Positions 13,483 to 44,937 of a stretch of DNA of 64,000 nt are shown here, one piece after another (within the stretch, counting starts at the first letter, position 1; each line of letters opens with the position of its first letter). Under the pieces are notes generated by a model that was not told the DNA's origin, ran no database searches, and saw only the letters and a list, made by a program, of their open reading frames with translations. The DNA is from Rhabdothermincola salaria (GTDB lineage: Bacteria > Actinomycetota > Acidimicrobiia > Acidimicrobiales > Acidimicrobilacustridaceae): contig NZ_JAJQXW010000001.1 of NCBI RefSeq assembly GCF_021246445.1, positions 496,001 to 560,000 on the forward strand, given 5' to 3'. The position numbers and the translations under genes were made by a program.

Positions 13483-16030
13483 CTACGACGTCGGCGGAGC
13501 CTGCAGCATCGGGGTGAAGCGGTGCGGTGGCACCGCCGGTGACCACAGGAAGCCCTGGGCCAGCTCACAGTCGAGCCCGAGCAGGGTGGCGCGCTGCTGC
13601 TCGGTCTCGACCCCTTCGGCGACGACCTCGATGCCGAGCAGCCGGGCCACTCCGCAGATGGCCCCCACCAGGGCGACGTCGTCGTCGTTGGGGAGGTCGA
13701 CCACGAAGGACCGGTCGATCTTGAGCTCGTCGATCTCGAGGCGCTTGAGGTAGGCCAGCGACGAGTAGCCCGTGCCGAAGTCGTCGATGGCGACGCGGAC
13801 CCCCATGGCTCGCAGGGCCTGGAGGGTGGCGGTGCTGGGTGTCGAGCACCTCCACCATCGTGCTCTCGGTGACCTCCAGGACGAGCTGGGTGGGGTCCAG
13901 CCCGCTCTCGGCGAGCGCATCGGTGACCACGCCGACCAGGTCGGGGTCGGCCAGCTGCCGGGCCGAGATGTTCACCGACACCGACAGGGCCCGCTCGTCG
14001 TCCGGCCAGGCCGCGGCGTCGTGGCAGGCCTGGCGCAGGATGGCACGGTCGATGGCGCCGATGAGGGCGATCTCCTCGGCGAGGGCGATGAAGTCGTTGG
14101 GTCCGACCGTGCCGATACCCGGACGTTCCCAGCGGGCGAGGGCCTCGGCTCCCACCACCGTGCCGTCCTGGATGCGGACCCGAGGCTGGTAGTGGGGGAC
14201 GATCTCTCCTCGGTCGAGGCCCTGACGCAGGGCGATCTCGGTCTCGAGGCGTCGGCGCGCCCGACCTCGGTCGGCCTGGTCGAACCAGGCGGTGTGGCTG
14301 GGGCCGTGGTCCCCGGCCGGGCCGAGGGCGCCGATGGCGTCGGACAGCAAGGCGTCGGCCTCGGTGCCGAGACGGGACGTGGCCACCCCGACCGAGATCG
14401 ACGGGCGCAGGACGTGGTGGTCGACGGCGACGTCGCTGATGGTGGCCCGCAGGGCGGCGATCCGCTCTTCGACGGTGGTGCGCTCGGCGAGACCGGGGCA
14501 CAGCACGGCGAAGCGGCCGTCGGTCAGGCGACCCACGAACTCGTCGGACGTGACGGCGTTCTCGAGGCAGCGGGCCACGTGCACGACGAGGGCGCCGCTG
14601 GCGTCGTGGCCGAGCGACTGGTCGACGCGGGCCAGCTCGTCGATCTCCATGGTCAGGACGGTGACCCGGCCGTCGAGGCCCTCACGCAGCGCCCGGCGAA
14701 GCCCCTCGACCACCGCGGTGCGGCTGGGCAGGCCGGTGAGGGGGTCGGTGAGGTCGGCCTCGATGTCGGCCTCGCGGCGGCGGGCCTGCTCCATGATGCT
14801 GGCGGCGATGTTGCGCACCTCGTGGACCAGGTCGGTGTCGAGGTCCTCGGGGGGTCGGTCGTCGCGGCCCATGACGAGGGCGACCACGTCGTCGCCACTG
14901 CTGGTGCGGCTTCGCGCCGCCGCCACCCAGCCTCGACTCGCGGGGCCGTGGTCGGCCGCGTCGACGGGTGGCGGCTGGAAGGGGAGGTGGGTGGCCAGGT
15001 TCCCGGAGGTCATGGCCCGGTCCAGCCAGGGCAGCGACGCCAGCGGGACATCGTGGATCATGGCGCGCACCTCGGGAGGCAGGCCCGGGTCGGCGCGGAC
15101 CCGCAGCCGGCCGTCGTGCACCGAGAGCAGGACGACCCGGCGGGCTCCGAGTCGCTCCTCGGCCAGTCGGGCGAGGTCCACCAGGACGTCGTCGACGTCG
15201 ACGCCGGCGACGGCCCGGGCCAGCAACCGGTCGACGCCCTGGCGGAACCGGGCGGCGCGGCGAGCCGACGAGATGTCGCGGATCACGATCTGGAGGTGCT
15301 GGCGGCCCTGCAGTTGCACGACGGTGACGCGGGCACCCACTTCGAGGGTGGCGCCGTCGTCGGCCAGGACGCGGTAGGTGTGGCGCACGACGCGGTCTGG
15401 TCGGCTCCGCACCGAGTCACGGTGCTGTTGGGAGCGGCCCAGGTCGTGGGGGTGCACCACGTCGGCGACGCGTCGGCCCACCACCGGCCGCTCGCGGGCC
15501 CGCAGCAGGAGCTCGGTCGCCTGGTTGGCGTAGACGACGACGCCCGCATCGACGAGCACGACGGCCTCGTCGAGGTTCTCGAGCAGGCTGCGGTAGCGGG
15601 CCCCGAGCTCGCTGCGCTCCTGTTCGGCCTCGACCCAGTCGGTGACGTCGAGGAGGAGCCCCTCGAGCAGGCCCTCGATCGCCGCCCGCCCTCCCTGCTC
15701 CCAGACCCAGCGCACCGCGCCGTCGGCCCGGCGGATCCGGTAGCGCAGGTCGTAGGGCTTCTCCGCGTCGACGGCGATGCTCACCTCGCGGTGCACCATG
15801 GCCAGGTCGTCGGGGTGGATGAAGGCGCTGAAGTCTCGCCCCACGAGGTCGTCGGGCGAGAGGCCCAGGAGGGCCCGGACCTCGCCCCACACGTGGCGCA
15901 CGGTGAAGTCGGCGTCGTGATCGCACAGGTAGGCGATCCCGGGCAGATGGGCGAGCACCGCGTCGGCCGCGCCCTCACCGAGGGTGGTCGCATCCTCGGG
16001 ATCCGGGGCTCTCCCCGCTGAAGTGGTCAC
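13483..16030 (-). pseudogene. PAS-PAS-GAF-GGDEF(degenerate)-EAL phosphodiesterase with a 1-nt frameshift
   Basis: PAS (IHPDDL...RWVWEQG), TDPLTGLP, degenerate TDGRF and GAEALARW in one frame; DDFGTGYSS...KIDRSF...AEGVE...QGF in another. The frames join if one base is removed at 13837-13839. May be a sequencing error. Confidence 0.8.
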
Positions 16031-17695: not shown

Positions 17696-18820
17696 GTGCC
17701 GCCCATCCCCGTCGACGAGTACCCCCTGCACCAGGCCCCGCTGTCCCTGGCCTACCCGGCGTCGAGCGACCGCAACTTCTACGACCGCTGCTACATCAAC
17801 GCCCACGATCGCACCGGCGAGGTCTTCCTCATCACCGGGCTCGGCGTCTACCCGAACCTCGGCGTCATCGACGCCTTCGCCTGCATCCGTCGCGGCGACC
17901 AGCAACACGTCATCCGCATGTCCGACGCCCTCGGTGACGACCGCATGGACCAGTCGGTCGGTCCGTACCGCATCGAGGTCCTCGACCCCCTCAAGGAGCT
18001 GCGGGTGGTGTGCGAGGGCGACGACCACGGCCTCTCGCTCGACCTGCACTGGCGGGGCTCGTACCCGGCGGTCGACGAGTCACCCCACGTGATGCGGGGG
18101 CCGAGCGGCAAGATCATCCTCGACGCCCAGCGCTTCGCCCAGGTGGGCACCTGGGAGGGGTTCATCCGGGTCGACGGCGAGGAGCTCACCGTCTCTCCCG
18201 ACCAGTGGGTCGGCACCCGTGACCGCTCCTGGGGGATCCGCCCCGTCGGCGAGGCCGAGCCCGCCGGACGGGCCGCCGCCGAGCCCGATCCCAACTACGG
18301 GTTCTGGTGGCTCTACTGCCCGATCCGGATGGAGGACCACGCCCTGGTCTTCATCTTCCAGGAGACCGCCGAGGGCCACCGCTTCCTCAACGACGCCCTG
18401 CGGGTGTGGCCCGAAGAGAGCGGCCGGGGGGTCGAGACCCTCGGCTTCCCCAAGGTCGACATCCAGTACCGCTCCGGCACCCGCATCCCCACGGGCGCCA
18501 CCATCACCGCCACCGAGCCCGACGGCACGCCGTTGGTGGTCGAGATCGAGAGCAAGGGCTACGTGGCCCTCGCCGCCGGTTGCGGCTACGGCTCGGATCC
18601 GCAGTGGACCCACGGCCTCTGGAAGGGCCGCGACTGGGTCGAGCGGGCCACCTACGACCTGAACGACCCGGCCAACGCCGCGGCCACCCAGTTCGGCATG
18701 CTCGACCACGTCGGCATCGCCCGCTGCAACGGCCAGGTCGGTGCCGGACTGTTCGAGCACGCCTCCATCGGCCGCCACGATCCCTCGGGGTTCACCGACT
18801 TCATGTCCGTCGCCCCCTGA
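17696..18820 (+). CDS. Conserved actinobacterial hypothetical protein (predicted beta-rich, tocopherol-cyclase/AttH-like)
   Basis: PVDEYPLHQ, DRNFYDRCY, GLGVYPNLGV and RDRSWGIRPVGE motifs, strong GC3 codon bias. GTG 17696 follows GGAGA; the ORF is open from 17684. The fold assignment is tentative. Confidence 0.75.
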   Translation: MPPIPVDEYPLHQAPLSLAYPASSDRNFYDRCYINAHDRTGEVFLITGLGVYPNLGVIDAFACIRRGDQQHVIRMSDALGDDRMDQSVGPYRIEVLDPLKELRVVCEGDDHGLSLDLHWRGSYPAVDESPHVMRGPSGKIILDAQRFAQVGTWEGFIRVDGEELTVSPDQWVGTRDRSWGIRPVGEAEPAGRAAAEPDPNYGFWWLYCPIRMEDHALVFIFQETAEGHRFLNDALRVWPEESGRGVETLGFPKVDIQYRSGTRIPTGATITATEPDGTPLVVEIESKGYVALAAGCGYGSDPQWTHGLWKGRDWVERATYDLNDPANAAATQFGMLDHVGIARCNGQVGAGLFEHASIGRHDPSGFTDFMSVAP

Positions 18821-18832
18821 CGGGTCCCCCAA

Positions 18833-18961
18833 CGACGCTGCGTGCCCCCAACGCTGGGTTGCCCCCACCGCTGGGTGCCCTCAACGCTGGGTGCCCTCAA
18901 CGCTGGGTGCCCTCAACGCTGGGTGCCCTCAACGCTGGGTGCCCTCAACGCTGGATGCCCC
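18833..18961. repeat. 16-bp tandem repeat (unit CAACGCTGGGTGCCCT), about 8 copies
   Basis: Perfect units at 18882, 18898, 18914 and 18930; variants at about 18833, 18849, 18866 and 18946. Confidence 0.9.
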
Positions 18962-18968
18962 CACCGGG

Positions 18969-19079
18969 TTCTTGCATGGTTTCGACGTGCTCCGGCACGC
19001 CGAAACCATGCAACTACGGCAAGTAGACGGTTCTTGCATGGTCTGGGCGTGCCCTGGCACGCCGAAACCATGCAACTAC
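18969..19079 (-). repeat. Tandem pair of 49-nt hairpin repeats, subfamily A (A1 18969-19017, A2 19031-19079)
   Basis: On the minus strand GTAGTTGCATGGTTTCGGCGTGCC...CCATGCAAGAA; 62-nt period; lies between convergent genes. Confidence 0.9.
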
Positions 19080-19092
19080 GGGAAGCGGGATG

Positions 19093-20917: not shown

Positions 20918-23260
20918 ATGGAGCCGACGCAGGAGGTGACCACCAAGCCTGCCTCGGCGCGCCTGTCGGTCGCCGTGCTCGTCGTGGGCACCACCTGGGT
21001 CGTCCTGCACGCCGTGGGCTGGCTCGATCCCGAGGCCAAGATCACCTTCGGCCTGCTGGGGCTCACCACCGCGGTGGCCACCGCCGTCGGCGTCTACCGC
21101 TGGAAGCCGGAGCCCCGGTGGCCCTGGCTCACCCTCCTGGCCGCCCAGATCCTGGCGCTCGTCGGTGGTGGGGTCCGGGCCCTGCTCGACACGCTCGGCG
21201 ACCTGAGCCCCGACCGGTCGCTCGTGCCCGACCTGTTGGCCCTTCCCGCCTACATCCTCCTGGCCGTCAGCCTGGCCGGCCTGGCCCGCTCCGCCCTGCG
21301 CAGCCGCGACGCCAACCTCGACGCCGTCCTCGACGCCGTCATCGCCTCGTTGGCCCTGCTCACCCTGGCCTGGGTGTACCTGGTCACCCCGGCCCTGGCC
21401 CAGGCCGACGCCCCGCTGTCGGTGCGCCTGGTGCTGGCGGCCTACCCGCCGGCGTCGATGTTCGTGGTGGCCATGGCCGCCCGCATGCTCTTCACGTCGG
21501 CCCGCAAGCCCCCGGTGGCCTTCCGGCTCGTCATGGCCTGCATGGTCGGGCTGCTCGTCGGCGACGTGCTCTACATGCTCGCCGACACCCGCCTGGCCGA
21601 GATCCCCACCACGATCCTCGATGTGCCCTACGCCATGGCCTACGTCGCCTTGGCCGCCGCGGTGCTGCACCCCTCGATCCGTCGGGTGTCCGAGCCGGTG
21701 AGCGCCGCCGACGACACCCCCCGCATCGGCCGCCTGGTCTTCGTGGCCGCCGCCCTCTCCATCCCGGTCATCGTGTTGCTGGTGCCGGCCGAGACCCTCG
21801 AGACCACCAGCGAGCGGGTCGTCGTGGGCGCCATCGTGTTGTTGCTCACCGGCGCCGCGTCCTGGCGGATGTTCCGGGCGCTGCGCCAGCAGGCCCGGGC
21901 CCAGGATCGCCTGGTGCACCAGGCCACCCACGACGTCCTCACCGGGCTGGGCAACCGCCTGTTCGTGGTCGAGCACCTGACCAAGGCCCTCGACGACGAC
22001 CGGCGCGGCTCCATCGCCGTGCTCGTCATCGACCTCGATCGCTTCAAGTTGGTCAACGACTCGATGGGTCACACCTTCGGTGACGAGCTGTTGTTGGCGG
22101 TGGCTCGCCGGCTCCTGGACAGCGTGCGCCCCGGCGACGTGGTCGCCCGCATCGGTGGTGACGAGTTCATGGTGGTGTTGCACGGGGTGCGTGACGAGTC
22201 CGCCGCTCGCGACGCGGCCGAGCGCACCCGCCTGAGCTTCAAGTACCCGTTGGCCGCCGGCGACGTGGAGATGACCGTGTCGGCCAGCGTCGGTGTGTCC
22301 TACGCCCCGCCCGGCTACCTGCCCGAGGCGGGGGCCGAGTCGCTCCTGCGCGACGCCGACACCGCCATGTCACGGGCCAAGGACGCCGGCCGCGACACCG
22401 TCTCGGTGTTCGACACCTCCATGCGCGAGCGGGTGGCCGAGCGCCTCACCCTCGAGCGCGAGCTGCGCCACGCGCTCGAGCGCGGCGAGCTCGAGGTCTA
22501 CTACCAGCCCAAGTTGCGCCTCTCGGACATGCGGGTGGTCGGCATGGAGGCCCTCCTGCGCTGGAACCACCCCGAGCGGGGCACGGTGCGTCCGGACCTG
22601 TTCATCCCCATCGCCGAGGACACCGGGATGATCGACGAGATCGGCCTGTGGGTACTCGATCAGGCCTGTGGCCACCTGGCCCGCCAGCGGGCCGGGCTGC
22701 GCCAGCCCGAGCTGCTCACCGTCAGCGTGAACCTGTCGGTGCGCCAGCTGCGCGACGACTCCCTGGTCGACAACGTGGCCCGCACCCTGCTGCGCCACGG
22801 GCTGCCCGGCAACGCCCTGTGCCTCGAGCTCACCGAGTCGATGTTCATGGAGAACCTCGATGGCATCCGCCGTCATCTCGAAGCGGTGCGGGCCTGCGGC
22901 GTGAAGATCTCCATCGACGACTTCGGCACCGGCTACTCGTCGCTGGCCTATCTGCGCAGCCTGGCCGTCGACGAGGTCAAGATCGACCGGGCCTTCGTGA
23001 GCGATCTGGACCCCCAGAGCGGTTCGGGCACCAGCGTGGTGGCCGCCGTGGTGGCGATCGCCAGCTCGATGGGCATCGCCACGGTGGCCGAGGGCATCGA
23101 GACCGAGGAGCAGGCCGACGTGCTGCGCGAGCTCGGCTGCACCGAGGGTCAGGGCTTCCTCTACTCCCGTCCGCTGCCCGCCGGTGAGGCGGTGGCGGTG
23201 ATGGAGGAGATCGGCCTGGCGGCCGGCACCCGCCTCCGGGTGGTGCCGCACTCGGCCTGA
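20918..23260 (+). CDS. Multi-TM sensor diguanylate cyclase/phosphodiesterase (GGDEF-EAL)
   Basis: About 9-10 TM helices, HDVLTGLGNR, RPGD I-site, intact GGDEF, MEALLRW, DDFGTGYSS, AEGIE, QGF. Confidence 0.92.
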   Translation: MEPTQEVTTKPASARLSVAVLVVGTTWVVLHAVGWLDPEAKITFGLLGLTTAVATAVGVYRWKPEPRWPWLTLLAAQILALVGGGVRALLDTLGDLSPDRSLVPDLLALPAYILLAVSLAGLARSALRSRDANLDAVLDAVIASLALLTLAWVYLVTPALAQADAPLSVRLVLAAYPPASMFVVAMAARMLFTSARKPPVAFRLVMACMVGLLVGDVLYMLADTRLAEIPTTILDVPYAMAYVALAAAVLHPSIRRVSEPVSAADDTPRIGRLVFVAAALSIPVIVLLVPAETLETTSERVVVGAIVLLLTGAASWRMFRALRQQARAQDRLVHQATHDVLTGLGNRLFVVEHLTKALDDDRRGSIAVLVIDLDRFKLVNDSMGHTFGDELLLAVARRLLDSVRPGDVVARIGGDEFMVVLHGVRDESAARDAAERTRLSFKYPLAAGDVEMTVSASVGVSYAPPGYLPEAGAESLLRDADTAMSRAKDAGRDTVSVFDTSMRERVAERLTLERELRHALERGELEVYYQPKLRLSDMRVVGMEALLRWNHPERGTVRPDLFIPIAEDTGMIDEIGLWVLDQACGHLARQRAGLRQPELLTVSVNLSVRQLRDDSLVDNVARTLLRHGLPGNALCLELTESMFMENLDGIRRHLEAVRACGVKISIDDFGTGYSSLAYLRSLAVDEVKIDRAFVSDLDPQSGSGTSVVAAVVAIASSMGIATVAEGIETEEQADVLRELGCTEGQGFLYSRPLPAGEAVAVMEEIGLAAGTRLRVVPHSA

Positions 23261-30891: not shown

Positions 30892-30968
30892 CGTCGACCC
30901 GATCGTCCTGCGTGTGCGCCTGGCGCTCCGCCGCCCTCTTGCCTGGGTGCGCCCCACCCTCCCAGGCC

Positions 30969-31017
30969 TTCTTGCATGAGATCGACGTCGTGGAGCACGT
31001 CGATCTCATGCGAGTTC
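30969..31017 (-). repeat. 49-nt hairpin repeat, subfamily A (A3)
   Basis: TTCTTGCATGAGATCGACGT...ACGTCGATCTCATGCGAGTTC; stem substitutions are compensatory relative to A1. Confidence 0.8.
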
Positions 31018-31461: not shown

Positions 31462-31542
31462 GGGGACCATCTTCCCGCGATCGCGTCGGCCCCGAACCAC
31501 GGCCCGAACCACGGCCCTGGGTCCCAGCCCGAAACCTCCCCC

Positions 31543-31591
31543 TTCTTGCATGACATCGGCGCACTCCACCACGCCGATTCCATGCGAGAAG
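31543..31591 (-). repeat. 49-nt hairpin repeat, subfamily A (A4)
   Basis: TTCTTGCATGACATCGGCG...CGCCGATTCCATGCGAGAAG. Confidence 0.75.
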
Positions 31592-31640
31592 CGGGATGGG
31601 GGCGCGGGTCGGCGGGAGAGGTGCGGGCGCGTTCTGGGGG

Positions 31641-34856: not shown

Positions 34857-36203
34857 TCAGCTGACGGTGCGGAGGGTAGCGATGGGCGCCTGGTCGTCGG
34901 CCGGTGGGGCCCCGGCGCCGAGGAGCATCAGCTCGGTGGGGTCCACCGGGTTGAGGTCGCCGGTGCGCACGGCCGGTTGGGCGTGGGTGAGCAGCGTGCG
35001 CAACATGGCCATGGCGAAGGCCTCGGTGTCGAGGTCGGGGTCGAGCTGGCCGGCCTGCTGGGCGGCGCCGACGAGGGCGACGATGCGGGGGATGGGGCCC
35101 CACGTGACGGCCCCGGGCGCGTAGCTCTCGCTCATGCCCGCGAACACGAGGATGGCGCTCTGGGTGAGCGGCTGGGAGCGCTCCATGAGCGCGGTGGCCA
35201 GGGCGATCATGGTCCGCAGCTCGGTGATGGGATCGAGTCCGTCGGGGATGGAGGTGAACGACTCGTCGGCCAGCATCAGGAACACCCCGATGCCGAGGGC
35301 GTGCTTGGAGCCGAACAGGCGGTGGATCTCACCGGCGGAGATGCCGGCAGCGGTGGCCACCTCTTCGATGCTGAGCTCCTGCCATGGCCGTTCGGTGAGC
35401 AGCCCTCGGGCGGTCGCGGCGATGTCGAAGGGGGTGACGACGCGGTCGTGGGTGTGGGCGAACGCCGTCATCTGGCTCTGGGGGGTGGTGCGGCCATGGC
35501 GGACGCGCTCGCCGTCGGAGGGGAAGCGGGTCATGAGGCCCGCCACGACCGGCAGGTCGGCGCCGTCGTCCTGCATGCGGGTGAGCGTGATGAGCATGGC
35601 GAACGCCGCCCAGGAGTACAGCTCGACGGGAGCACCCTCGGGGTCGATGAGGTGGCGAGCCGCGAAGGCGTCCATGAAGGTGGAGTAGAGGGCGGCGAGG
35701 TTGTCCATGGTCACCGGGGGACGGGCCTCCCGGCCCCAGCGGGTGAGCATCAGCTCCGACGCGGCGACCGCTCGCTTCTCGGTGATGCGGTATTGGCGGC
35801 GGAGCTTCTCGGCCACCACCGGGTCGTCGAGCTTGGCCAGCATGCCCAGGCGCACCCGGAGGGCGGGGTCGTCGACCACGGTGCGCAGCTGCATCTGGCA
35901 GGCCTGCTCGAACTGGGCGTGGAGGTCGCCGTCGCCCAGGGCCATCTGGTTCATGAGGTCGACGACGGCGGGGTCGTAGCCGTCGGCGGTTGGGTCGGTG
36001 ATGTGGTCGACCAGCTCGTCGAGGTACTCCTGGGTGGTGCTCCAGTAGGCGTAGAAGGTGGCCCGGGTGATGCCGGCCGCCTTGGCCAGCCGGGAGACGT
36101 TGAGCCCGCCGAAGAGCTCGGCGGGCGGAGTGTCGATCCACAGGTCGAGGCCGGCCTGGAGGACCTTCTCACGTGTGGTGGGGGGGGAGGACGGGTTCGG
36201 CAC
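34857..36203 (-). CDS. Tandem (double) TetR-family regulator
   Basis: Two TetR HTHs: VSRLAKAAGITRATFYAYW and SIEEVATAAGISAGEIHRLFGSK. The GTG at 36203 lies 7 nt after a TATAGT -10, so the gene is probably leaderless. Confidence 0.8.
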   Translation of the reverse strand: MPNPSSPPTTREKVLQAGLDLWIDTPPAELFGGLNVSRLAKAAGITRATFYAYWSTTQEYLDELVDHITDPTADGYDPAVVDLMNQMALGDGDLHAQFEQACQMQLRTVVDDPALRVRLGMLAKLDDPVVAEKLRRQYRITEKRAVAASELMLTRWGREARPPVTMDNLAALYSTFMDAFAARHLIDPEGAPVELYSWAAFAMLITLTRMQDDGADLPVVAGLMTRFPSDGERVRHGRTTPQSQMTAFAHTHDRVVTPFDIAATARGLLTERPWQELSIEEVATAAGISAGEIHRLFGSKHALGIGVFLMLADESFTSIPDGLDPITELRTMIALATALMERSQPLTQSAILVFAGMSESYAPGAVTWGPIPRIVALVGAAQQAGQLDPDLDTEAFAMAMLRTLLTHAQPAVRTGDLNPVDPTELMLLGAGAPPADDQAPIATLRTVS

Positions 36204-36226
36204 GGCCCCGACTATACAGGACTGTT

Positions 36227-36248
36227 CACTAGACACTGATGTCTAGTG
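36227..36248. promoter_or_regulatory. Candidate TetR operator
   Basis: Perfect inverted repeat CACTAGACA-CTGA-TGTCTAGTG just upstream of the tandem TetR -10 (ACTATA at 36211-36216 on +). Confidence 0.7.
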
Positions 36249-36558
36249 CAACGCTCGCTCGTGCTCATTGACCAGGGCGTCAGCGTGCGGTTGTCTGGCC
36301 ACGTGCCGGCGGCCCCGCCGTCGACACGACCGGCTCCGTCCCAGGTCCGTCGCTCACTTCGGTGGGTGAGGTGCCGGGGACAGGCCGGGGCTGGACCGTC
36401 CGGATCACTCCGGGCGCCGGTCGCACTGCGTGCGAGGCGCAGCTCGGCTCGTCATCTGGGCGGCGCGGGCCGAGCGTGCCTCGACGTGGGCCCTGAACCG
36501 GCGACAGCCTCCTTCACCGCCGCCCGGACTCGCTCGAAGCGGCTCGCCCGAACCACGC

Positions 36559-36670
36559 GTAGTTGTCGGGTTAGGGCGTCGACAGGTGACGCTGTTTCCT
36601 GACAGGTTCGCCGGTGGGGTGTTGTTGTCGGGTTAGGGCGTCGACAGGTGACGCTGTTTCCTGACAGGTC
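36559..36670 (+). repeat. Tandem pair of 50-nt hairpin repeats, subfamily B (B1 36559-36608, B2 36621-36670)
   Basis: GT(A/T)GTTGTCGGGTTAGGGCGTCGACAGGTGACGCTGTTTCCTGACAGGT; 62-nt period; immediately downstream of the DUF559 gene. Confidence 0.9.
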
Positions 36671-36686
36671 CGCCGGTGGAACGCGG

Positions 36687-37736
36687 CTACTCGTGCTGGG
36701 GGGCGGGTGGATGGGCGGCGGGGTGAGCGTGTCGGGAGGACCGCACGGCGTTGCGGAGGGTCGCCACGACCCGCCCGGGCTGGTGCCAGACGTCGACCTC
36801 GGCGATCTCGAGCACGGTCCAGCCGCTGGCGCGGAGCCGACCGAGGCGGACCTGGTCGCGCTCGCGGTCGACAAGGCTGCGGTGGTACAGCTCGCTTTGG
36901 ATCTCGACGATGACGGTGGCCTGGCGATGGGTGTAGTCGACCCGTCCGATCACGCCGCCGTCGTCGCCGATCGTCACCTGGCGCTCGAAGCCGGCGACGT
37001 CGTGGTCCCGGAGGATCTGCTCGAAGCGGTGCTCGAGGTTGGAATCGGTCGGCCGGTAGTCCGGATCGCTGCGGTCCTCGAGGATCGAACGCATGGTGCG
37101 GATCCCGGGACGGCCGCGACCTTGCAGATCCTCGAGCATGGCGAGCAGATCGCGGTAGGTGGTGAGCCGCAGGCTCAAGCACCGGTCCGTGAGGCGGGCG
37201 ACGCGATCGGGGTGCACACGGGCGGCGAGGTCGAACAGGGTGCGGGCCGCCGTGGTGACCCGCAGCCCGTCGATCACGGTCACGTGGCCGACGTGGAACC
37301 TCGTGGAGGTGTGGCTCACGGGGGTCCTCGGGTCACGGGCGCGCCGGACCCGCATCACGTGAGGGGGGAGCAGAGCGAACCCGCCGAACCCGAGGACCGC
37401 GGCGGCGGAGGACGTGGCGAGGGCCGCATCATCGCCCTCACGGAGTAGTGCGGCCATGGCGGATCGGCGTTCGGTGGGCGGGGCGCTGACGAAGGACCAG
37501 ACCCGCCTGGTGGCGCTGGCGATCTCGCCGGTCTCCCGCCAGCGACGGAGGCTGTCACGGCCAAGGCCGGCCTCCCGGGCCTGGGCCGAGGTGAACAGCC
37601 CATGCTGGCCGGCCGCGATCTCGCGGACTCGGGTCCTTCGGTCGTCCTTGGGGTGATGGGGTTCACTGGCCAGGATCGCTGGGAGTGGCCCCGGCGGGGT
37701 CGGTATGACCCAAGGGTTCGGCGTGGCATCGTCCAT
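36687..37736 (-). CDS. AbiEi-like wHTH plus DUF559 (Vsr-like PD-(D/E)XK) endonuclease protein
   Basis: N-terminal IAAGQHGLFTSAQAREAGL, middle GLRVTTAARTLFDLA, C-terminal SNLE...RQV...RVD...IVEIQS..YH...RD..L...GWTVL. Confidence 0.85.
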   Translation of the reverse strand: MDDATPNPWVIPTPPGPLPAILASEPHHPKDDRRTRVREIAAGQHGLFTSAQAREAGLGRDSLRRWRETGEIASATRRVWSFVSAPPTERRSAMAALLREGDDAALATSSAAAVLGFGGFALLPPHVMRVRRARDPRTPVSHTSTRFHVGHVTVIDGLRVTTAARTLFDLAARVHPDRVARLTDRCLSLRLTTYRDLLAMLEDLQGRGRPGIRTMRSILEDRSDPDYRPTDSNLEHRFEQILRDHDVAGFERQVTIGDDGGVIGRVDYTHRQATVIVEIQSELYHRSLVDRERDQVRLGRLRASGWTVLEIAEVDVWHQPGRVVATLRNAVRSSRHAHPAAHPPAPQHE

Positions 37737-37870
37737 CTCGACTCCCTGGGACGGGAAGTGGTGGACGGCACGGCCGCCGATCGCCGGAGTCCATCACTGG
37801 AAGCACGCAGTGACAAGGGCACGTTCGGGCGACCGACACATCGAGGCTCGGCTCCTCGCTCGAACCGCGC

Positions 37871-37920
37871 GTAGTTGTCAGGGTTGGGCGTCAACAGGTG
37901 ACGCCCTTTCCTGACAGGTT
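37871..37920 (+). repeat. 50-nt hairpin repeat, subfamily B (B3)
   Basis: GTAGTTGTCAGGGTTGGGCGTCAACAGGTGACGCCCTTTCCTGACAGGTT; same orientation as B1 and B2. Confidence 0.9.
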
Positions 37921-38001
37921 CGCGAGGGCCGGGAAGCCGGGCAGGTCCGGCTGGGAGGGAGACTCCTGGGATCGGCCTCGAGCGGAGTCGGGGGTGAGGC
38001 G

Positions 38002-39150
38002 TCAGGGGGTGAGGGAGCGGCCGATGATCTCCTTCATGATCTCGGTGGTGCCGCCGTAGATGGTCTGGATGCGGGTGTCGAGGTAGGCCCGGGCGATGGG
38101 GTACTCGAGCATGTAGCCGTAGCCGCCGTGGAGCTGCACGCAGCGGTCGACGACCCGCTTCTGCAGCTCGGTCGTCCAGTACTTGGCCATGGCGGCCTCC
38201 TCGACGCTGAGCGTGCCGGCCACGAGGGCTTCCACGCAGCGGTCGACGAACACCTCGCCGATCTGGATCTCGGTGGCCATGTCGGCCAGCTCGAAGCGGC
38301 TGTTCTGGAACGAGGACACCGGGCGACCGAAGGCCTGGCGCTCGTCGGTGTACTCGAGGGTCCAGCGCAGGGCCTGGCGGGCCATGGCGATGGCGCCCAC
38401 GGCGATGGAGAGCCGCTCCTGGGCCAGGTTCTCGACCAGGTGCACGAAGCCCATGCCCTCGGTGCCGAGGAGGTTGTCGACCGGCACGTGCACGTCGTTG
38501 AAGAACAGCTCGGCGGTGTCCTGGCTCTTGAGGCCGACCTTGGCCAGGTTGCGGCCCCGTTCGAAGCCGTCCATGCCCCGTTCGAGCACGATGAGGCTCA
38601 TGCCCTTGTGGCGTTGGCTGGGGTCGGTCTTCACGGCGGTGATCACCAGGTCGGCGTTGATGCCGTTGGTGATGAAGGTCTTGGAGCCGTTGACCACGTA
38701 GTGGTCGCCGTCGCGGATGGCGCTGGTGGACATGCCGGCGAGGTCCGAGCCGATGCCGGGTTCGGTCATGGCGATGGCGGTGATGAGCTCGCCCGAGGCG
38801 ATGCCGGGCAGCCAGCGGGCCTTCTGGTCGTCGGTGGTGAGGCTGAGGAAGTACGGCAGGCAGATGTCGTTGTGCAGGGTGATGCCCAGCCCGGCTCCGC
38901 CGGTGCCGGCGTAGGCCATCTCCTCGGCGAGGACCTGGTTGTAGCGGAAGTCGTCGACCCCGCCGCCGCCGTACTGCTCGGGCGCGGCCATGGCGAGGAA
39001 GCCGTTGTCGCCCGCCTTGGTGAACAGCTCTCGGGGGACGATGCCGGCGCTGTCCCACTCCTCGGTGTGCGGGGTGATCTCCTTGGCCACGAAGGCGCGG
39101 ACGGACTCCCGGAACATCTCGTGGTCGTCGGTGAGCAGCGTGCGTTCCAT
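38002..39150 (-). CDS. Acyl-CoA dehydrogenase (long-chain type)
   Basis: AIAMTEPGIGSDL, NGSKTFITNG, QDTAELFF, CVQLHGGYGYMLEYPI, IYGGTTEIMK. Confidence 0.95.
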   Translation of the reverse strand: MERTLLTDDHEMFRESVRAFVAKEITPHTEEWDSAGIVPRELFTKAGDNGFLAMAAPEQYGGGGVDDFRYNQVLAEEMAYAGTGGAGLGITLHNDICLPYFLSLTTDDQKARWLPGIASGELITAIAMTEPGIGSDLAGMSTSAIRDGDHYVVNGSKTFITNGINADLVITAVKTDPSQRHKGMSLIVLERGMDGFERGRNLAKVGLKSQDTAELFFNDVHVPVDNLLGTEGMGFVHLVENLAQERLSIAVGAIAMARQALRWTLEYTDERQAFGRPVSSFQNSRFELADMATEIQIGEVFVDRCVEALVAGTLSVEEAAMAKYWTTELQKRVVDRCVQLHGGYGYMLEYPIARAYLDTRIQTIYGGTTEIMKEIIGRSLTP

Positions 39151-39213
39151 GGCGGTCAGGCTACGCCTCGGGCGCGCTGGCTGACGAGGCCGTCAGCCAG
39201 AACGAATCCGACG

Positions 39214-39262
39214 TTCTTGCATGGTCTTGGCGCCATGGGGCGCGACGAACGCATGCAAGAAC
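39214..39262. repeat. 49-nt hairpin repeat, subfamily A (A5)
   Basis: TTCTTGCATGGTCTTGGCG...CGACGAACGCATGCAAGAAC. Confidence 0.75.
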
Positions 39263-39343
39263 CGGTTGTGGGGCAGGCTGGTTGTGGGGCCGGTCCGGGG
39301 GGGCGGTCCGGGGGCGGTCCGGGCGGCCTGTCCGCGGGTCGCT

Positions 39344-39748
39344 TCAGCGGGGGCGGCGGCGGGGGTCGACCAGGCCGGGGCCACCCATGGAAGCCGAGAC
39401 GGAGGCCGCCTCACGCAGGCCGTCGGCTGCCGCGACGGTCATCCGCGACAACGAGGCGATGTCGGGGGTGCGCCCGGCGGTGGCGGTGCCGTGCAGGTGG
39501 TCGAGGTGGTGGCGCAGGACCTGGCTGCAGTTGCTCCGGAAGCGCTCGGTGGAGGCTTGGGTGGCGATCCACTCGGGATCGTCGACCCGGGCTTCACGGA
39601 TCCAGTCGAGGGCGGGGGTGGCCGCGACCAGCAGCTCGGCCAGCTCGGGGTACTGCCGGGCCGGGCCCAGGCTGCGAGGACCGAGGTAGCGCCCGCACTG
39701 GCAGGGGCAGAGGGTGGCACTGCTGGGGGGAGTGGTGGTGGCCGCCAT
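39344..39748 (-). CDS. Hypothetical protein with N-terminal CPCxCG motif
   Basis: MAATTTPPSSATLCPCQCGRYLG followed by a helical region with HHLDHLH. Confidence 0.55.
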   Translation of the reverse strand: MAATTTPPSSATLCPCQCGRYLGPRSLGPARQYPELAELLVAATPALDWIREARVDDPEWIATQASTERFRSNCSQVLRHHLDHLHGTATAGRTPDIASLSRMTVAAADGLREAASVSASMGGPGLVDPRRRPR

Positions 39749-39835
39749 GAACTGATTGTGACCCATCTGCCACGCAAAGTGGGCACAATCGCGCCCTCTG
39801 GGGCCAAAACGAGCCGTACGGCCTAGGCGCGCCGC

Positions 39836-40549
39836 TCAGAGCTCGACGTGCACCGCGTGGGGGTGGGCGAGGGTGATCCGGGCATCGTGGAGGTCGGCCT
39901 CGAAGACGTGGCCTCCTGTGGAGCGATCCGCGGCCAGGAGGTGCAGGTGGAAGCCGGCGAACTCGAGGTCGCCGGCGTCGGGCGGGAAGCAGAACCCGAC
40001 CATCGTGCCGACCAGCTCGGGGACGGTGAAGTCGTGCTGGTCGGTGGCGAGCACCTCGGCCAGGGGCCGGTAGGGCGGGTGCTGGCGGGCGACCGATCGA
40101 AAGCGCACCGGCGCGAAGCGGCCCTCGACCCGCAGGGCGTAGCAGCCGTCGGGATCGGGCAGGTGCTCGCGGACGAGGGCCTCGAACCCGGCCCGGTCGA
40201 GAGGCCCGGTGACGTCGATGGTGGTCGCCTCGACCAGGTCGCAGAGCACGGCGAAGGGGACCCGGGCGGTGTCGGGGGCGAGCCGGGCCACGCCGTCGAC
40301 GTCGATGTCCCAGAACTCGCCGTCGACGACGACGAGCTCGCCGTCGAGGCCCTCGAGGGTGCCGATCCCGAAGTGGCCGAGCGGGCGCAGGTCGCCGACG
40401 GTGACGTCGCCCTCGTACGCGCCGGCCTGCACGTCCTGGGCGGTGTGGATCTGGATGATGTCGCCGGGGTCGTGGTCCTCGTCGGTGAGCTGGTCGCTGC
40501 GGAAGGTGTGCACGCGCAGGCGGTGGGCGAGGACGGGGTCGATCGTCAC
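39836..40549 (-). CDS. budA: Alpha-acetolactate decarboxylase
   Basis: GAYEG, GHFGIGTLEGLDGE, RSV..Q.PPY, zinc ligands GFHLH...GGHV. Confidence 0.88.
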   Translation of the reverse strand: MTIDPVLAHRLRVHTFRSDQLTDEDHDPGDIIQIHTAQDVQAGAYEGDVTVGDLRPLGHFGIGTLEGLDGELVVVDGEFWDIDVDGVARLAPDTARVPFAVLCDLVEATTIDVTGPLDRAGFEALVREHLPDPDGCYALRVEGRFAPVRFRSVARQHPPYRPLAEVLATDQHDFTVPELVGTMVGFCFPPDAGDLEFAGFHLHLLAADRSTGGHVFEADLHDARITLAHPHAVHVEL

Positions 40550-40964
40550 GGTCGTGGACCCTACCGACGAGCGGCGCCGTGTCGGGGTGGAAGTCGTCGG
40601 GCTGGTCGGGGAGCGGGCTCGATGTGGCTGCGCCCCAGGGGCCGGACCGGGCAGGCTGGATGTTGGCGGGCTGGTCGGGGACCGGGCGCGATGTCGTCGG
40701 TCTCGAGGGATCGGACCGGGCGGGGGTGCCGGGCTGGCTCTGGGCGGGAGCGGTGGCGCCGGCTCGCGTCACAGGCTCGCGTCACAGCGGGGTGGCGGAG
40801 CGAGCCGGTGTGGAGTCGCGCGAGGATCGGCGCTGGTCGCGTCGGCGGCGTGGCCGCTGCGGTGGGGATGCCGGCCGGGGTGGCCGACGTCGGCTCCGCA
40901 GCGCGTCGTGCCGACCAGGCCCGGCCCGCCCGGCCCGATCCCCGAACGGAGGCTCTCGATCGCT

Positions 40965-41180
40965 GTGACGTCCAGGATCTTCGACATCCCCGGTCTGCCC
41001 GCTCCGGCCCGACGAGCGCTGGTCCGCAACGGCTTGACGTCGTTCGAGGCCGTGGCGGCCTGCGACGAACGAGACCTCGCGGTCCTCCATGGTGTGGGCC
41101 AGCGCACCATCGAGGTGTTGCGTCGTGCCCTGGCCGAGCAGGGTCGAGGCTTCGGCGACCCCACCCCTCCGACTCGCTGA
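40965..41180 (+). CDS. Small helix-hairpin-helix (RNAP alpha-CTD-like) DNA-binding protein
   Basis: LPAPARRAL..NGL...DLAVLHGVGQRTIEVLRRAL; GGAGG RBS. Confidence 0.75.
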   Translation: MTSRIFDIPGLPAPARRALVRNGLTSFEAVAACDERDLAVLHGVGQRTIEVLRRALAEQGRGFGDPTPPTR

Positions 41181-41210
41181 CGGACTCGATCGCTGGCAGT
41201 CGCCGTGCGC

Positions 41211-41322
41211 GTACCTGTCGGATTTCGGCGCCGACAGGTGACGCCCTTTACCGCCAGGTTCGCGAGGGGGCGTGGCTGTCGGCGTTGGGCGTCGAGGGGT
41301 GGTGCTCCTTTTCCGACAGGTG
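41211..41322 (+). repeat. Diverged tandem pair of hairpin repeats, subfamily B (B4 41211-41260, B5 from 41272)
   Basis: GTACCTGTCGGATTTCGGCGCCGACAGGTGACGCCCTTTACCGCCAGGTTCGCG and GTGGCTGTCGGCGTTGGGCGTC...TTCCGACAGGTGCGCG; 61-nt period; lies between convergent genes. Confidence 0.75.
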
Positions 41323-41420
41323 CGCGAGTGAGTTGCGGGAGGGATGGCGCGCGGGGAGGGGGGTGAGCGGCGGGGGCTCGAGGAGGCGAACGCCCGGAGA
41401 GGTGGGCGCCCCGGGGGCGG

Positions 41421-43991
41421 CTACTCGTAGGTGAGCCAGGGGCCGGCGAGGGGTTGCTGGCCCCGGCCGGGGACGGTCCAGTCGCACACGCCGTCGGGGA
41501 AGATGGCGGCCAGGCGCTCGGCCTGGGCGGGGGTGAAGTCGACGGCGTAGACGTCGGAGGCGGCGTCGGCCGGCACGAGGGTGCAGGCGATGGTGGTGCC
41601 CACCAGCGGGGCCCCGGCCTGCTGGCGGGGGTCGGCGTGGAGGGGGAAGGCCTCGTTGCAGGGGCCGTCGAGCTCGTAGGCCTCGGGCCCGGTGAGCACG
41701 GCGCCGTCGGGGAGGCGGCAGCGGTCGGCGCCGTCGCCGGGGCGGGCCTCGGCCAGCAGGGCGGCGCGCACCGAGATGGCTCGCATCTCGTCGGGCGATG
41801 CCACGGCGCTCGGGCGGGCCCGGGCGTCATCCGCGTCACCCGAGTCGTCCGCCTCAGCCGAGTCGGCGGTGGGGGGAGGGTCGGTGTCGGGCGCGGCGGG
41901 CACGAGCGACCAGGCGCCGCTCCACGGGTCGCCGGCGCGGGGGACGGCCTCCACGCCGCCGTAGGAGTCTGCGGCCAGGGCGTCGGCGTCGGTGAGCCAC
42001 TCGTCGAGGAGGCGGACGGCTTCGAGGGTGGTGTTGTCGTGGCCCAGGGCGGCACCGAGGAGGCTGGCCAGATCGGTGATGCCGGGCCTCGACCACATGA
42101 CGAGGTTGGGGTTGGCGGTGCCGTCGCGGAGGGCCAGGCGGTCGCGGATGGCGTAGAGGCGTTGGCGGTCGTGGATGTCGCCGACGGGGTCGTTGTAGAC
42201 GCCGATGAGCAGCACGGGGACGTCGACCAGGCCCCCGGCGCCGTCGTGGGTGAGCGCTCCGCCGGTGGCGGTGGCGCTGCCGGCGGTGAGGCGTCCGTCG
42301 CGGTAGACGCGCTCGAGCACCTCGTCGGAGGCACGGGTGCGGGTGGGCTGCCAGTTGCCGTCGACGTCGTAGCCGCCGATGCCCTCGTTGAGGTCGAGGA
42401 ACTCGTCGACGGAGAGCACGCCCTCGTTGAGGGCGTCGAGCCCGTACTGCACGCCGGTGTTGTCGAGCGGGCTGAGGGCGTAGCCGGTCTCGCGGTCGGT
42501 GCCGAGGAGGTTGACGTTGGAGTCCTGCAGGGTGCAGCGCACGCCGCGGGGGTTCCTGTCGGGGTCGTACTCCTGCCCGGCGTCGAAGAGGGCTTCGGCG
42601 CAGCCGACCGACGGGTCGATGTTCTGCAGGTAGGTGGCCCGCCAGAAGGCGCAGGTGGTGGGGGAGGCGAAGCCGCTGATGGCCAGGCGCTGCTCGTCGG
42701 TGAGGTCGGCGCCCTCACCCGCGCCCTCGCCCGCGGCGTCGGACGGGTCGGCGCTGGTGCCGCCACCGAGCGCCAGCTCGAGCAGGGCGCCCAGCCCGCC
42801 GAGGCCGGTGCCGGCGTCGCCGTACCAGCGGCCCAGGAGCCCGCAGTCGGCCACGCCGCCGGCGATGCTCATGGCGTCGGGGAAGGGGATGGACGGGGCG
42901 ACGGCGTCGAGCAGGCCGGGGTAGTTCTGGGCGATGAGGAGCTGTTGGATGGCGCCGCCGGAGCCGCCCTCGCCGATGGTGTAGCGGGGCAGGCCGTAGG
43001 CCTCGCTGAAGTGCTCCTTGGCCACCATGACGGTCTCGGCGGCCACGACGTCGTTGCAGGCGGTGGCGAAGGTGGTGAGCGACGAGGCCGCCACCGCGTA
43101 GCCGTCGGCCAACAGGTCGGTGGCCAGGGCCGCACCGCTCTCCTCGCCCTGGCCGAAGGTGGCACCGCAGCCGCCGCCGAAGCGGTAGACGAGCCGGCCG
43201 TTCCACGCCGAGTCGTCCCACGCCCGCACCGGGGTGGGCCCGGGCGTGGTGCCGGCGGGGGCCCCGGGGTGGGGGTCGAGCATGGCGAAGGTGGTGATCG
43301 AGCGGTTGAGCACCGCCGTCTCGAGGCGAACGATGAAGGGACGGTCGCCGTCGAGCACGGCGACGTCGTCGGGCACCACCGCGGGGTCGGCGAGGTCGCG
43401 CAGCGTGCCGCTGGTGGTGCGATACATCCATCGGACCTGGCTGCGGGCCCAGCAGTCGTCCTCGGGCGGCCCCAGGCCGGCGGCTTCGGTGGTGCACACG
43501 AAGGGGCTCAGCTGGGGCCCGGAGATGAGGGGGCCGTCGACGGGGTGCACGTCGACGGTGAGCTCGGCTGCCTCGTCGTCGAGCGCCGCGGTGATGGTGC
43601 TCTCGCCGAGGGGGAGGCCCTGCACCACACCGACGAGGCGGGGTGGGGCGTCGGGGGCGGCGTGGGGGTCGTCGGAGAAGGTGAAGGCCGAGGTGACGTC
43701 GCGGCCGTCGACGTCGACGGAGACGTCGTCGAGCGACAGGCCGGTGGGGGAGTCGATGCCGACGAGCACGTTGCCGTTGGTGACGTAGGCGGCCGGGGTG
43801 GACAGCGACAGGATGCGCAGGGGGGCGTCGGGGTCGACGGAGGGGGCGACCGGGCCCGGACGGTCGGCCTCGTCGCCGCCACCGGTGCAGGCGGCGGCCA
43901 CCAGCGCCAGCGCCACGACCACCACCAGCCCCCTGAGCGCTCGAAGGGGACGAGCGGGCGGCGTGGTGAGGCGGCGGTGAGCGATCGGCAT
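41421..43991 (-). CDS. DUF6351-family secreted lipoprotein (tannase-like alpha/beta hydrolase)
   Basis: Lipobox VAAAC, WNGRLVYRFGGGC, TIGEGGSGGAIQQ...NYPGLLD, DNTGVQYGL, IFPDGVCDW. Confidence 0.8.
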   Translation of the reverse strand: MPIAHRRLTTPPARPLRALRGLVVVVALALVAAACTGGGDEADRPGPVAPSVDPDAPLRILSLSTPAAYVTNGNVLVGIDSPTGLSLDDVSVDVDGRDVTSAFTFSDDPHAAPDAPPRLVGVVQGLPLGESTITAALDDEAAELTVDVHPVDGPLISGPQLSPFVCTTEAAGLGPPEDDCWARSQVRWMYRTTSGTLRDLADPAVVPDDVAVLDGDRPFIVRLETAVLNRSITTFAMLDPHPGAPAGTTPGPTPVRAWDDSAWNGRLVYRFGGGCGATFGQGEESGAALATDLLADGYAVAASSLTTFATACNDVVAAETVMVAKEHFSEAYGLPRYTIGEGGSGGAIQQLLIAQNYPGLLDAVAPSIPFPDAMSIAGGVADCGLLGRWYGDAGTGLGGLGALLELALGGGTSADPSDAAGEGAGEGADLTDEQRLAISGFASPTTCAFWRATYLQNIDPSVGCAEALFDAGQEYDPDRNPRGVRCTLQDSNVNLLGTDRETGYALSPLDNTGVQYGLDALNEGVLSVDEFLDLNEGIGGYDVDGNWQPTRTRASDEVLERVYRDGRLTAGSATATGGALTHDGAGGLVDVPVLLIGVYNDPVGDIHDRQRLYAIRDRLALRDGTANPNLVMWSRPGITDLASLLGAALGHDNTTLEAVRLLDEWLTDADALAADSYGGVEAVPRAGDPWSGAWSLVPAAPDTDPPPTADSAEADDSGDADDARARPSAVASPDEMRAISVRAALLAEARPGDGADRCRLPDGAVLTGPEAYELDGPCNEAFPLHADPRQQAGAPLVGTTIACTLVPADAASDVYAVDFTPAQAERLAAIFPDGVCDWTVPGRGQQPLAGPWLTYE

Positions 43992-44832: not shown

Positions 44833-44867
44833 CCGCAGCCTTTCCTGGGGTCGTCGTGCCCCTCCTC

Positions 44868-44916
44868 CTAGTTGCATGGTTTCGGCGTGCTCCAGCACGC
44901 CGAAACCATGCAAGAA
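44868..44916 (+). repeat. 49-nt hairpin repeat, subfamily A (A6)
   Basis: CTAGTTGCATGGTTTCGGCGTGCTCCAGCACGCCGAAACCATGCAAGAA, near-perfect stem, opposite orientation to A1 and A2. Confidence 0.9.
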
Positions 44917-44937
44917 GCCGATGGGTGGGAACGCGGA

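Follow-up and report, generated by a model that had tools for sequence, protein, structure and literature searches.

To our knowledge, the origin and upkeep of short palindromic repeats are understood only for the repetitive extragenic palindromic (REP) repeats and RAYT genes of Proteobacteria and a few other groups, and we know of no agent for the GC-rich hairpins that litter actinobacterial genomes. An association of REP repeats with a RAYT gene was reportedly described by Nunvar in 2010. REP/REPIN repeats and the RAYT gene are presented as a dispersed extragenic palindromic family with one enzyme gene per family, which is flanked by copies of the repeat (Bertels and Rainey, 2011; PMC3116915). 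A second system of interest is I-Bth0305I (PDB 3r3p; PMC3239194), a Vsr-like homing endonuclease from a group I intron in a phage. The present analysis concerns a 64,000-nucleotide (nt) stretch of the genome of Rhabdothermincola salaria (the window, C1:496001-560000), in which a gene encoding an AbiEi-like module fused to a DUF559/Vsr-like nuclease lies between same-orientation copies of a dispersed hairpin, termed B. Proteins of this AbiEi_4-DUF559 type are usually annotated as AbiEi-family antitoxin domain or DUF559 proteins, and AbiEi antitoxins recognize inverted repeats within the promoters of their own genes and are thereby autoregulatory.

Like a RAYT gene, the gene described here is flanked by copies of a dispersed extragenic palindrome, three of the 33 copies found in the genome. 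We judge, with somewhat more confidence than doubt, that the gene and hairpin B are a cognate pair, and that they constitute a selfish or semi-domesticated repeat system of the REP/RAYT kind that is run by an unrelated enzyme.

The nuclease gene and its flanking hairpins

The genome examined (G000; 3.9 Mb, 72% G+C, 7 contigs, assembly 97.8% complete) has the following features at this locus, in window coordinates.

36538..36622, + strand: B copy U1, the outer unit of the doublet 3′ of the gene (reference repeat copy 36543-36611; nhmmer E 7.5e-16; covariance model 70.1 bits)
36605..36680, + strand: B copy U2, the inner unit of the doublet (repeat extent 36605-36673; nhmmer extent 36621-36680; fold -38.1 kcal/mol, z -4.1)
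36687..37736, - strand: gene for the AbiEi-like module and DUF559/Vsr-like nuclease, 349 amino acids (aa) (open reading frame, Pfam, PADLOC, AlphaFold2, Foldseek)
36747..37055, - strand: part coding for the DUF559/Vsr-like nuclease domain, residues 228-330 (Pfam, alignment, PDB matches, Foldseek)
37116..37643, - strand: part coding for the AbiEi-like module, residues 32-207, a winged helix-turn-helix and the AbiEi C-terminal domain (PADLOC, Pfam, Foldseek)
37737..37849, - strand: leader from the start codon to the upstream hairpin (sequence; 0 sigma-70-like sites in a consensus scan)
37850..37940, + strand: B copy U3, 5′ of the gene (repeat extent 37855-37923; model 74.7 bits; fold -40.2 kcal/mol, z -5.8)
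41195..41333, + strand: tandem B doublet without a gene, 3.3 kb away (repeat search, nhmmer)

The repeat search places 36543-36611, 36605-36673, 37855-37923 and 41195-41263 in one direct-repeat family, and the two 600-nt flanks of the nuclease gene match each other in blastn at E 2e-17. An earlier, sequence-only reading of the window had quoted flank sequences that are indeed found where it placed them, and it had correctly described B repeats of the same orientation on both sides of the gene; U1, U2 and U3 are all on the + strand, on which the covariance model gives them 70-75 bits, versus 48-52 bits on the - strand. That reading assumed two flanking copies, whereas the gene has three, two of which form a tandem doublet on the left. 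U1 and U2 share an identical 47-nt core. The distance from U2 to the stop codon is 7 nt by the nhmmer extent and 14 nt by the repeat-search extent, and U3 is situated 118 nt upstream of the start codon of the nuclease gene and 72 nt past the stop codon of an acyl-CoA dehydrogenase gene.

The copies at 37855-37923 and 36543-36611 are 88% identical over 69 nt. The sequence-only reading had the similarity extend beyond the hairpin to about 70 nt; most of this extension belongs to the outer stem of a longer element, and in an alignment of 25 copies the part found in these two flanking copies alone is the outermost 12-13 nt. The further proposal that they are the best-preserved B copies holds within the window but not genome-wide, where the two copies that had been singled out rank 6th and 11th by model score. 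The flanking copies do form the two top-scoring pairs among all 33 B copies (scores of 55 and 52; the next best pair reaches 47).

A search of this genome for repeats common to both 300-nt flanks of a gene (at least 30 nt, at least 80% identity), with genes called crudely from third-position G+C, retrieved 9/2579 genes, that is, 1/1 nuclease gene and 8/2578 others. In addition to the nuclease gene, the bracketed genes encode an SDR oxidoreductase (two B copies), a VapC-like protein, two substrate-binding proteins, three secreted or surface proteins and one membrane protein.

The gene is intact, and its product joins a complete DNA-binding module of the AbiEi type to a Vsr-like PD-(D/E)XK nuclease. 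Pfam recognizes AbiEi_4 at residues 36-73 (29.5 bits, cut-off 25) and DUF559 (PF04480) at residues 228-330 (26.1 bits, cut-off 20.6), the AbiEi models of PADLOC match residues 32-207 (E 4.9e-28), and an NCBIfam scan of the protein yielded nothing useful. In the AlphaFold2 model, which was built from an alignment of 26 sequences and has a mean pLDDT of 88, the first 24 residues are disordered, and the true start of the protein may therefore lie further in. Foldseek matches the first two thirds of the protein to the AbiEi antitoxin 6y8q_A (E 2.6e-5, TM score 0.67 on the target) and to Rv2827c (1zel), and the last 100 residues to the I-Bth0305I homing endonuclease domain (3r3p; E 8.9e-4, TM score 0.68 on the target), to 3hrl and to Vsr (1vsr). 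Sequence-profile matches of the nuclease domain in the PDB include 3hrl (E 3e-5) and 3r3p (E 4e-3). All 26 homologues have D267, H285 and D294, and at least 90% of them have E278; we assign these residues catalytic roles by analogy. Because the fold matches are Vsr-like and the acidic and histidine residues are conserved, the nuclease is probably active by the same analogy. Since 3r3p is a homing endonuclease, this nuclease fold is already known to drive selfish DNA.

The neighbours of the gene are a double TetR regulator and the acyl-CoA dehydrogenase (38002-39150, - strand), and neither an AbiEii gene nor a transposase adjoins it, as the sequence-only reading had stated; AbiEii (PF08843) has no match in the whole genome. 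Scans for promoters (sigma-70-like consensus) and terminators found nothing, including no terminator-like U tract. Y1_Tnp/RAYT (PF01797) has no match in the whole genome at E≤0.1, a threshold at which control genomes did match; a RAYT or IS200 gene elsewhere, which the sequence-only reading had named as evidence against itself, is accordingly not found. No second member of the nuclease family was detected in the genome by Pfam searches for DUF559 and AbiEi_4, by tblastn with the protein or by a profile of the 26 homologues, which over the six-frame translation matches the nuclease gene at E 1.4e-119 and its next target at E 0.23. PF18741 also matches an unrelated 2043-aa frame on contig C4.

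Homologues in related genomes and their hairpins

Homologues are numerous in the family (148 matches at E≤1e-10 in 41 of the 86 other genomes, with up to 10 in one genome), and they are divergent, with identities of 23-57% and at most 46% over a full-length match; many carry in-frame stops. No close orthologue was found among 87 family and 401 order genomes, in which the best identity is 44-46%, and a contig search for related loci gave none either.

The association of these genes with flanking repeats was compared with that of their neighbours in 20 regions of 20 kb around homologues, in which a repeat of at least 30 nt and at least 80% identity had to occur within 300 nt on both sides. Such a repeat is present at 10/15 homologues, the 15 being those called by the gene finder (no gene was called over the homologue in five regions), and at 0/231 other genes. 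The enrichment of repeats at DUF559 genes, on which the sequence-only reading had made its case depend, is thus seen among relatives as well as in this genome. Among relatives with a single locus, 29 loci were fetched, two had too little flank and 27 were tested within 330 nt; a flank repeat at E≤0.001 was detected in 23/27, and it spans at least 30 nt in 17 of these. Two of the four loci that were missed, L026 and L040, bear B-like hairpins on both sides according to the covariance model.

Four genomes with several paralogues provided 24 loci, of which two had short flanks and 22 were testable. A flank repeat occurs at 20/22 of these loci (under 30 nt at three of them), and the hairpins of different paralogues in one genome are mostly unrelated, with normalised scores largely of 0.1-0.3. 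Protein identity and flank-repeat similarity are correlated across 23 loci (Mantel r 0.39, a value reached by 0/2000 permutations), and the clearest pairs combine 75% protein identity with a repeat similarity of 0.90, 62% with 0.84 and 61% with 0.62. The sequence-only reading had suggested a test for such co-divergence of protein and repeat, which is observed here, with a correlation that is inflated by shared descent. The idea that each paralogue is matched to its own repeat subfamily is likewise borne out in the relatives, but not in this genome, which has one gene. By eye, many of the hairpins beside homologues (L016-L044, L112-L131; roughly half of the loci) have a loose CGAA(C)...(G)TTCG motif at their base and differ in their interiors.

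Full-length, high-scoring B hairpins are restricted to G000 among the 87 family genomes. Among the congeners, the B covariance model matches nothing in G001, G002 or G004 and gives a single weak match in G003, and weaker B-like families are found in eight other family genomes, the largest being that of G017 with 20 matches. In all four of those genomes that were examined (G017, G094, G096 and G099), B-like hairpins lie on both sides of a homologue.

A natural comparison of presence and absence is offered by genus g12. In G015 one hairpin, a homologue and two hairpins lie between convergent genes (query 1353-2548), which is the same layout of one hairpin upstream and two downstream as in the window. 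The congener G089 aligns through both neighbours and has 33 nt between the flank matches instead of 1196 nt, and its 39-nt spacer between the two stop codons contains no hairpin. Matches to the G015 locus number 62 in G015 and 46 in G088, nearly all of them dispersed hairpin copies, as against three in G089, none of which is to the hairpin; the paralogue that G089 does possess is another one, with another hairpin. In genus g12, the gene unit and the dispersed hairpin family are present or absent together. The sequence-only reading had looked to empty sites that retain one repeat; none was found for the window locus, and the empty site in G089 is free of hairpins.

Sequencing runs were also searched for the window locus. 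The best of them contained 0.14 of the words sampled, and contigs from two lake-water runs (depth 2-4) are near-exact to parts of the TetR and dehydrogenase flanks, none of them covering or bridging the gene body.

Hairpin families B and A in the genome

Iterated nhmmer searches, which converged, identify 33 copies of B in the genome at E≤1e-3. Three pairs are doublets, all of them direct tandems, and each unit is itself a long hairpin. In the alignment of 25 copies, B forms a two-helix hairpin of 21 pairs in which 82% of cells are paired, versus 32-54% for slid partners. The covariation signal is weak, with 83/500 shuffles reaching the observed score. On these figures B is a DNA palindrome that has been conserved, and not an RNA demonstrably under selection. 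An Rfam scan of 36000-42000 at E≤1 returned only a chance microRNA match, and B corresponds to no known RNA family in that scan.

On the crude gene calls, the B copies are nearly all intergenic and most are found no more than 100 nt past a stop codon. On the same calls, B is antisense to co-directional neighbour genes in 13/14 cases. Replication strand was considered as a cause of this orientation and rejected, as the GC skew is flat and the orientation does not switch at about 950 kb of C1, where the gene-strand bias does.

Two convergent genes have the solo B copy C1:1402466-1402538 as the entire spacer between their stop codons. This copy is missing in 4/4 congeners, in which both genes align and short unrelated spacers (6 nt in G004) occupy the site. 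No target-site duplication is seen at this insertion, which is the sole clean one of the two sites examined; at the second solo copy, C2:482041, the congeners hold extra DNA and the comparison is not clean. B is a mobile, insertion-polymorphic dispersed family.

In the congener G002 (L013, G002:C16, 9247-10642), the dehydrogenase adjoins a gene whose counterpart in G000 (C1:643010-644389) is 110 kb away. This counterpart sits beside another B copy (C1:644936).

The second family in the window, A, has an outer stem of TTCTTGCATGG...CCATGCAAGAA with obvious compensatory changes, and it numbers 40 copies genome-wide, including three tandem doublets. The copies recorded in the window are as follows.

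18958-19089: A hairpin
30955-31014: A hairpin
31533-31603: A hairpin
39208-39274: A hairpin
44859-44929: A hairpin

The sequence-only reading had assigned A to another paralogue of the nuclease; since the genome has only one such gene, A has no paralogue here, and this assignment is not supported. An A-like hairpin beside a paralogue in G010 is a weak match (nhmmer E 0.096), too weak to count.

Three further features of the window were recorded. About ten tandem copies of a 16-nt unit (18808-18968) lie directly beside an A doublet. The segment 39151-41420 is bracketed by A and B and comprises an A hairpin, a 140-aa open reading frame that matches nothing in Pfam, a gene for alpha-acetolactate decarboxylase and the B doublet; it is missing in the congener G001, in which the dehydrogenase gene and a DUF6351 gene are about 70 nt apart. 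Finally, an inverted repeat of 131 nt, 76% complementary, has its arms at 13694-13824 and 22877-23007, 9 kb apart.

Interpretation and comparison with known systems

We infer that the nuclease recognizes, moves or spreads the hairpins. In the mechanism that we propose, the AbiEi-like module would read the palindromic stem of its own hairpin, as a duplex or as a cruciform, and the nuclease domain would nick or cut at or near the hairpin. Repair of the break, or recombination, would then copy hairpins into new intergenic sites, mostly just past the ends of genes, and on rare occasions the whole unit of hairpin, gene and hairpin would be copied to a new intergenic site. The upstream B copy may double as an operator for autoregulation, as in AbiEi antitoxins. 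The sequence-only reading had proposed a non-HUH analogue of the REP/RAYT system; its core, the tie between gene and hairpin in a genome that has no RAYT gene, has stood, whereas its details, in which paralogues were expected in this genome and A was to have a gene of its own, have not.

A wider interpretation, which we advance more tentatively and regard as slightly short of an even chance, is that these genes represent a new class of bacterial mobile DNA, in which fusions of an AbiEi-type reader to a Vsr-like nuclease mobilise hairpin mini-elements, each paralogue evolving together with a hairpin of its own. On this view the RAYT/REPIN lifestyle would have arisen independently, without an HUH enzyme, and would be widespread in high-GC actinobacteria, with the capacity to reshape the 3′ ends of genes and synteny. 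No description of DUF559 or AbiEi-DUF559 genes tied to hairpin repeats was found in the full-text literature, the coverage of which does not extend to subscription journals. The reproducible and specific link of a very common but uncharacterised protein type to hairpins particular to each paralogue gives a testable handle on the origin of such repeats. If true, the link would mean that these genes are routinely misannotated as antitoxins; it could account for broken synteny and the turnover of accessory genes at hairpin sites, and it might yield nickases specific for a sequence or a structure. The hairpins may mark rearrangement breakpoints.

Several observations weigh against the proposal that the gene and B are a cognate pair. 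Brackets of the same kind occur without the nuclease, an SDR oxidoreductase gene (G000 C1:1977955-1979104, outside the window) being enclosed by two same-orientation B copies and a LysR gene by a pair of A copies. U3 follows the general rule that B copies are situated just 3′ of minus-strand genes, in this case the dehydrogenase gene, and the nuclease gene is located in a repeat-dense region of 14 kb that holds 9/73 of the A and B copies and in which nearly every gene is separated from the next by a hairpin. The B copies have diverged from each other, and any spread of B is therefore not recent. A has no AbiEi_4-DUF559 partner gene or recognizable pseudogene in this 97.8%-complete genome and is no more decayed than B (nhmmer scores of 38-67 bits for A and 38-62 for B), and hairpin families can therefore persist without a resident gene. 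Of the 23 single-locus relatives in which a pair was found, 16 have direct flanking hairpins, as here, and seven have inverted ones, a mixture that does not match a simple transposon with terminal repeats. DNA and translated comparisons with the congeners G001-G004 reveal no empty site for the window locus, because only the dehydrogenase gene and the genes to its right are syntenic and the left side differs. Finally, related genomes share descent, and the counts of co-divergence and co-occurrence therefore overstate independence.

The rival explanation that survives best, although we consider it unlikely, is that the unit is purely a selfish cassette of the homing type. The nuclease would then cut hairpin sites that lack the gene, and repair would copy the gene in between the units, so that solo hairpins would be targets or footprints of loss and would not be mobilised in trans. 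Consistent with this explanation, the nuclease domain resembles the homing endonuclease I-Bth0305I, the gene lies between units of an apparent tandem array and doublets without a gene exist at three other places, the direct flanking repeats would permit clean loss of the gene, and in-frame stops are present in many homologues, as in homing genes that undergo decay. Against it, the empty site in G089 is free of hairpins and G089 lacks the whole family, and the solo B copy that was checked is a new insertion at a site that is hairpin-free in four congeners, so that hairpins do spread on their own. The presence of one gene alongside 33 hairpins also weighs against a homing cassette alone.

Less likely again is a regulatory role, in which the hairpins are binding sites of the AbiEi module (an operator together with a regulon or decoys) or hairpins at the 3′ ends of transcripts, are moved by something else, and are unrelated to the role of the nuclease, for example in defence or repair. 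The presence of a full AbiEi-like module, the location of most B copies within 100 nt past a stop codon and the antisense orientation of B relative to co-directional neighbours, which depends on the crude gene calls, are compatible with such a role, but it fails to account for the B doublet 3′ of the gene, for the way in which gene and family are gained and lost jointly, and for the insertion polymorphism, given that no transposase candidate was found; a terminator-like U tract was not found either. Coincidence in a variable, repeat-rich region, where hairpins gather at sites of accessory-gene exchange and the nuclease gene is one such accessory, is improbable, since the density of hairpins within 14 kb around the gene, the lack of synteny to the left of the dehydrogenase gene, the absence of the adjacent bracketed segment 39151-41420 from G001 and the bracketing of the SDR and LysR genes are outweighed by the difference between homologues and control genes (10/15 versus 0/231), by the own hairpin of each paralogue, by the mutual nearest relationship of the flanking copies and by the B-like hairpins around homologues in four other genomes.

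Two familiar kinds of element were set aside. The gene is not part of an AbiE toxin-antitoxin pair, because no AbiEii match exists in the genome, and it is not an integron cassette, because none of the four tyrosine recombinases (PF00589) of the genome lies within the window.

Comparison with described systems places the pair of gene and hairpin closest to REP/RAYT. Beyond the flanking of the gene by copies of the palindrome, the resemblance includes tandem or clustered copies and, in the relatives, several families with separate genes in one genome. The enzyme, however, is an AbiEi-like winged helix-turn-helix module with a Vsr-like PD-(D/E)XK nuclease and not an HUH Y1 transposase, and the host is a high-GC actinobacterium. 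The arrangement also differs from REPIN, which is an inverted doublet of REP, in that the B doublets are direct tandems and the flanking copies are direct. With respect to the nuclease alone, the gene agrees with DUF559/Vsr-like PD-(D/E)XK nucleases in profile score, in fold and in its conserved acidic and histidine residues. I-Bth0305I has the same nuclease fold and is the product of a selfish gene that cuts DNA near its own insertion site, but the gene described here does not reside in an intron or intein, uses another DNA-binding module and is flanked by multi-copy hairpins rather than by the halves of a unique target; as regards homing itself, the observation made is the presence/absence polymorphism of a homologous unit (G015/G089). 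Residues 32-207 match the AbiEi of AbiE type IV toxin-antitoxin systems (6y8q) in profile and structure, with an N-terminal winged helix and a C-terminal domain, but the module is fused to a nuclease, and no AbiEii toxin gene is present beside it or elsewhere in the genome. As in miniature inverted-repeat transposable elements (MITEs) and insertion sequences (IS), short non-coding copies in intergenic DNA coexist with one longer copy that bears a gene; unlike these elements, no DDE or HUH transposase was found, the one clean insertion has no target-site duplication and the repeats at the flanks are direct. The arrangement would work as REP/RAYT does without belonging to that system, and it is likewise distinct from an AbiE toxin-antitoxin pair, an integron cassette and a classical MITE/IS.

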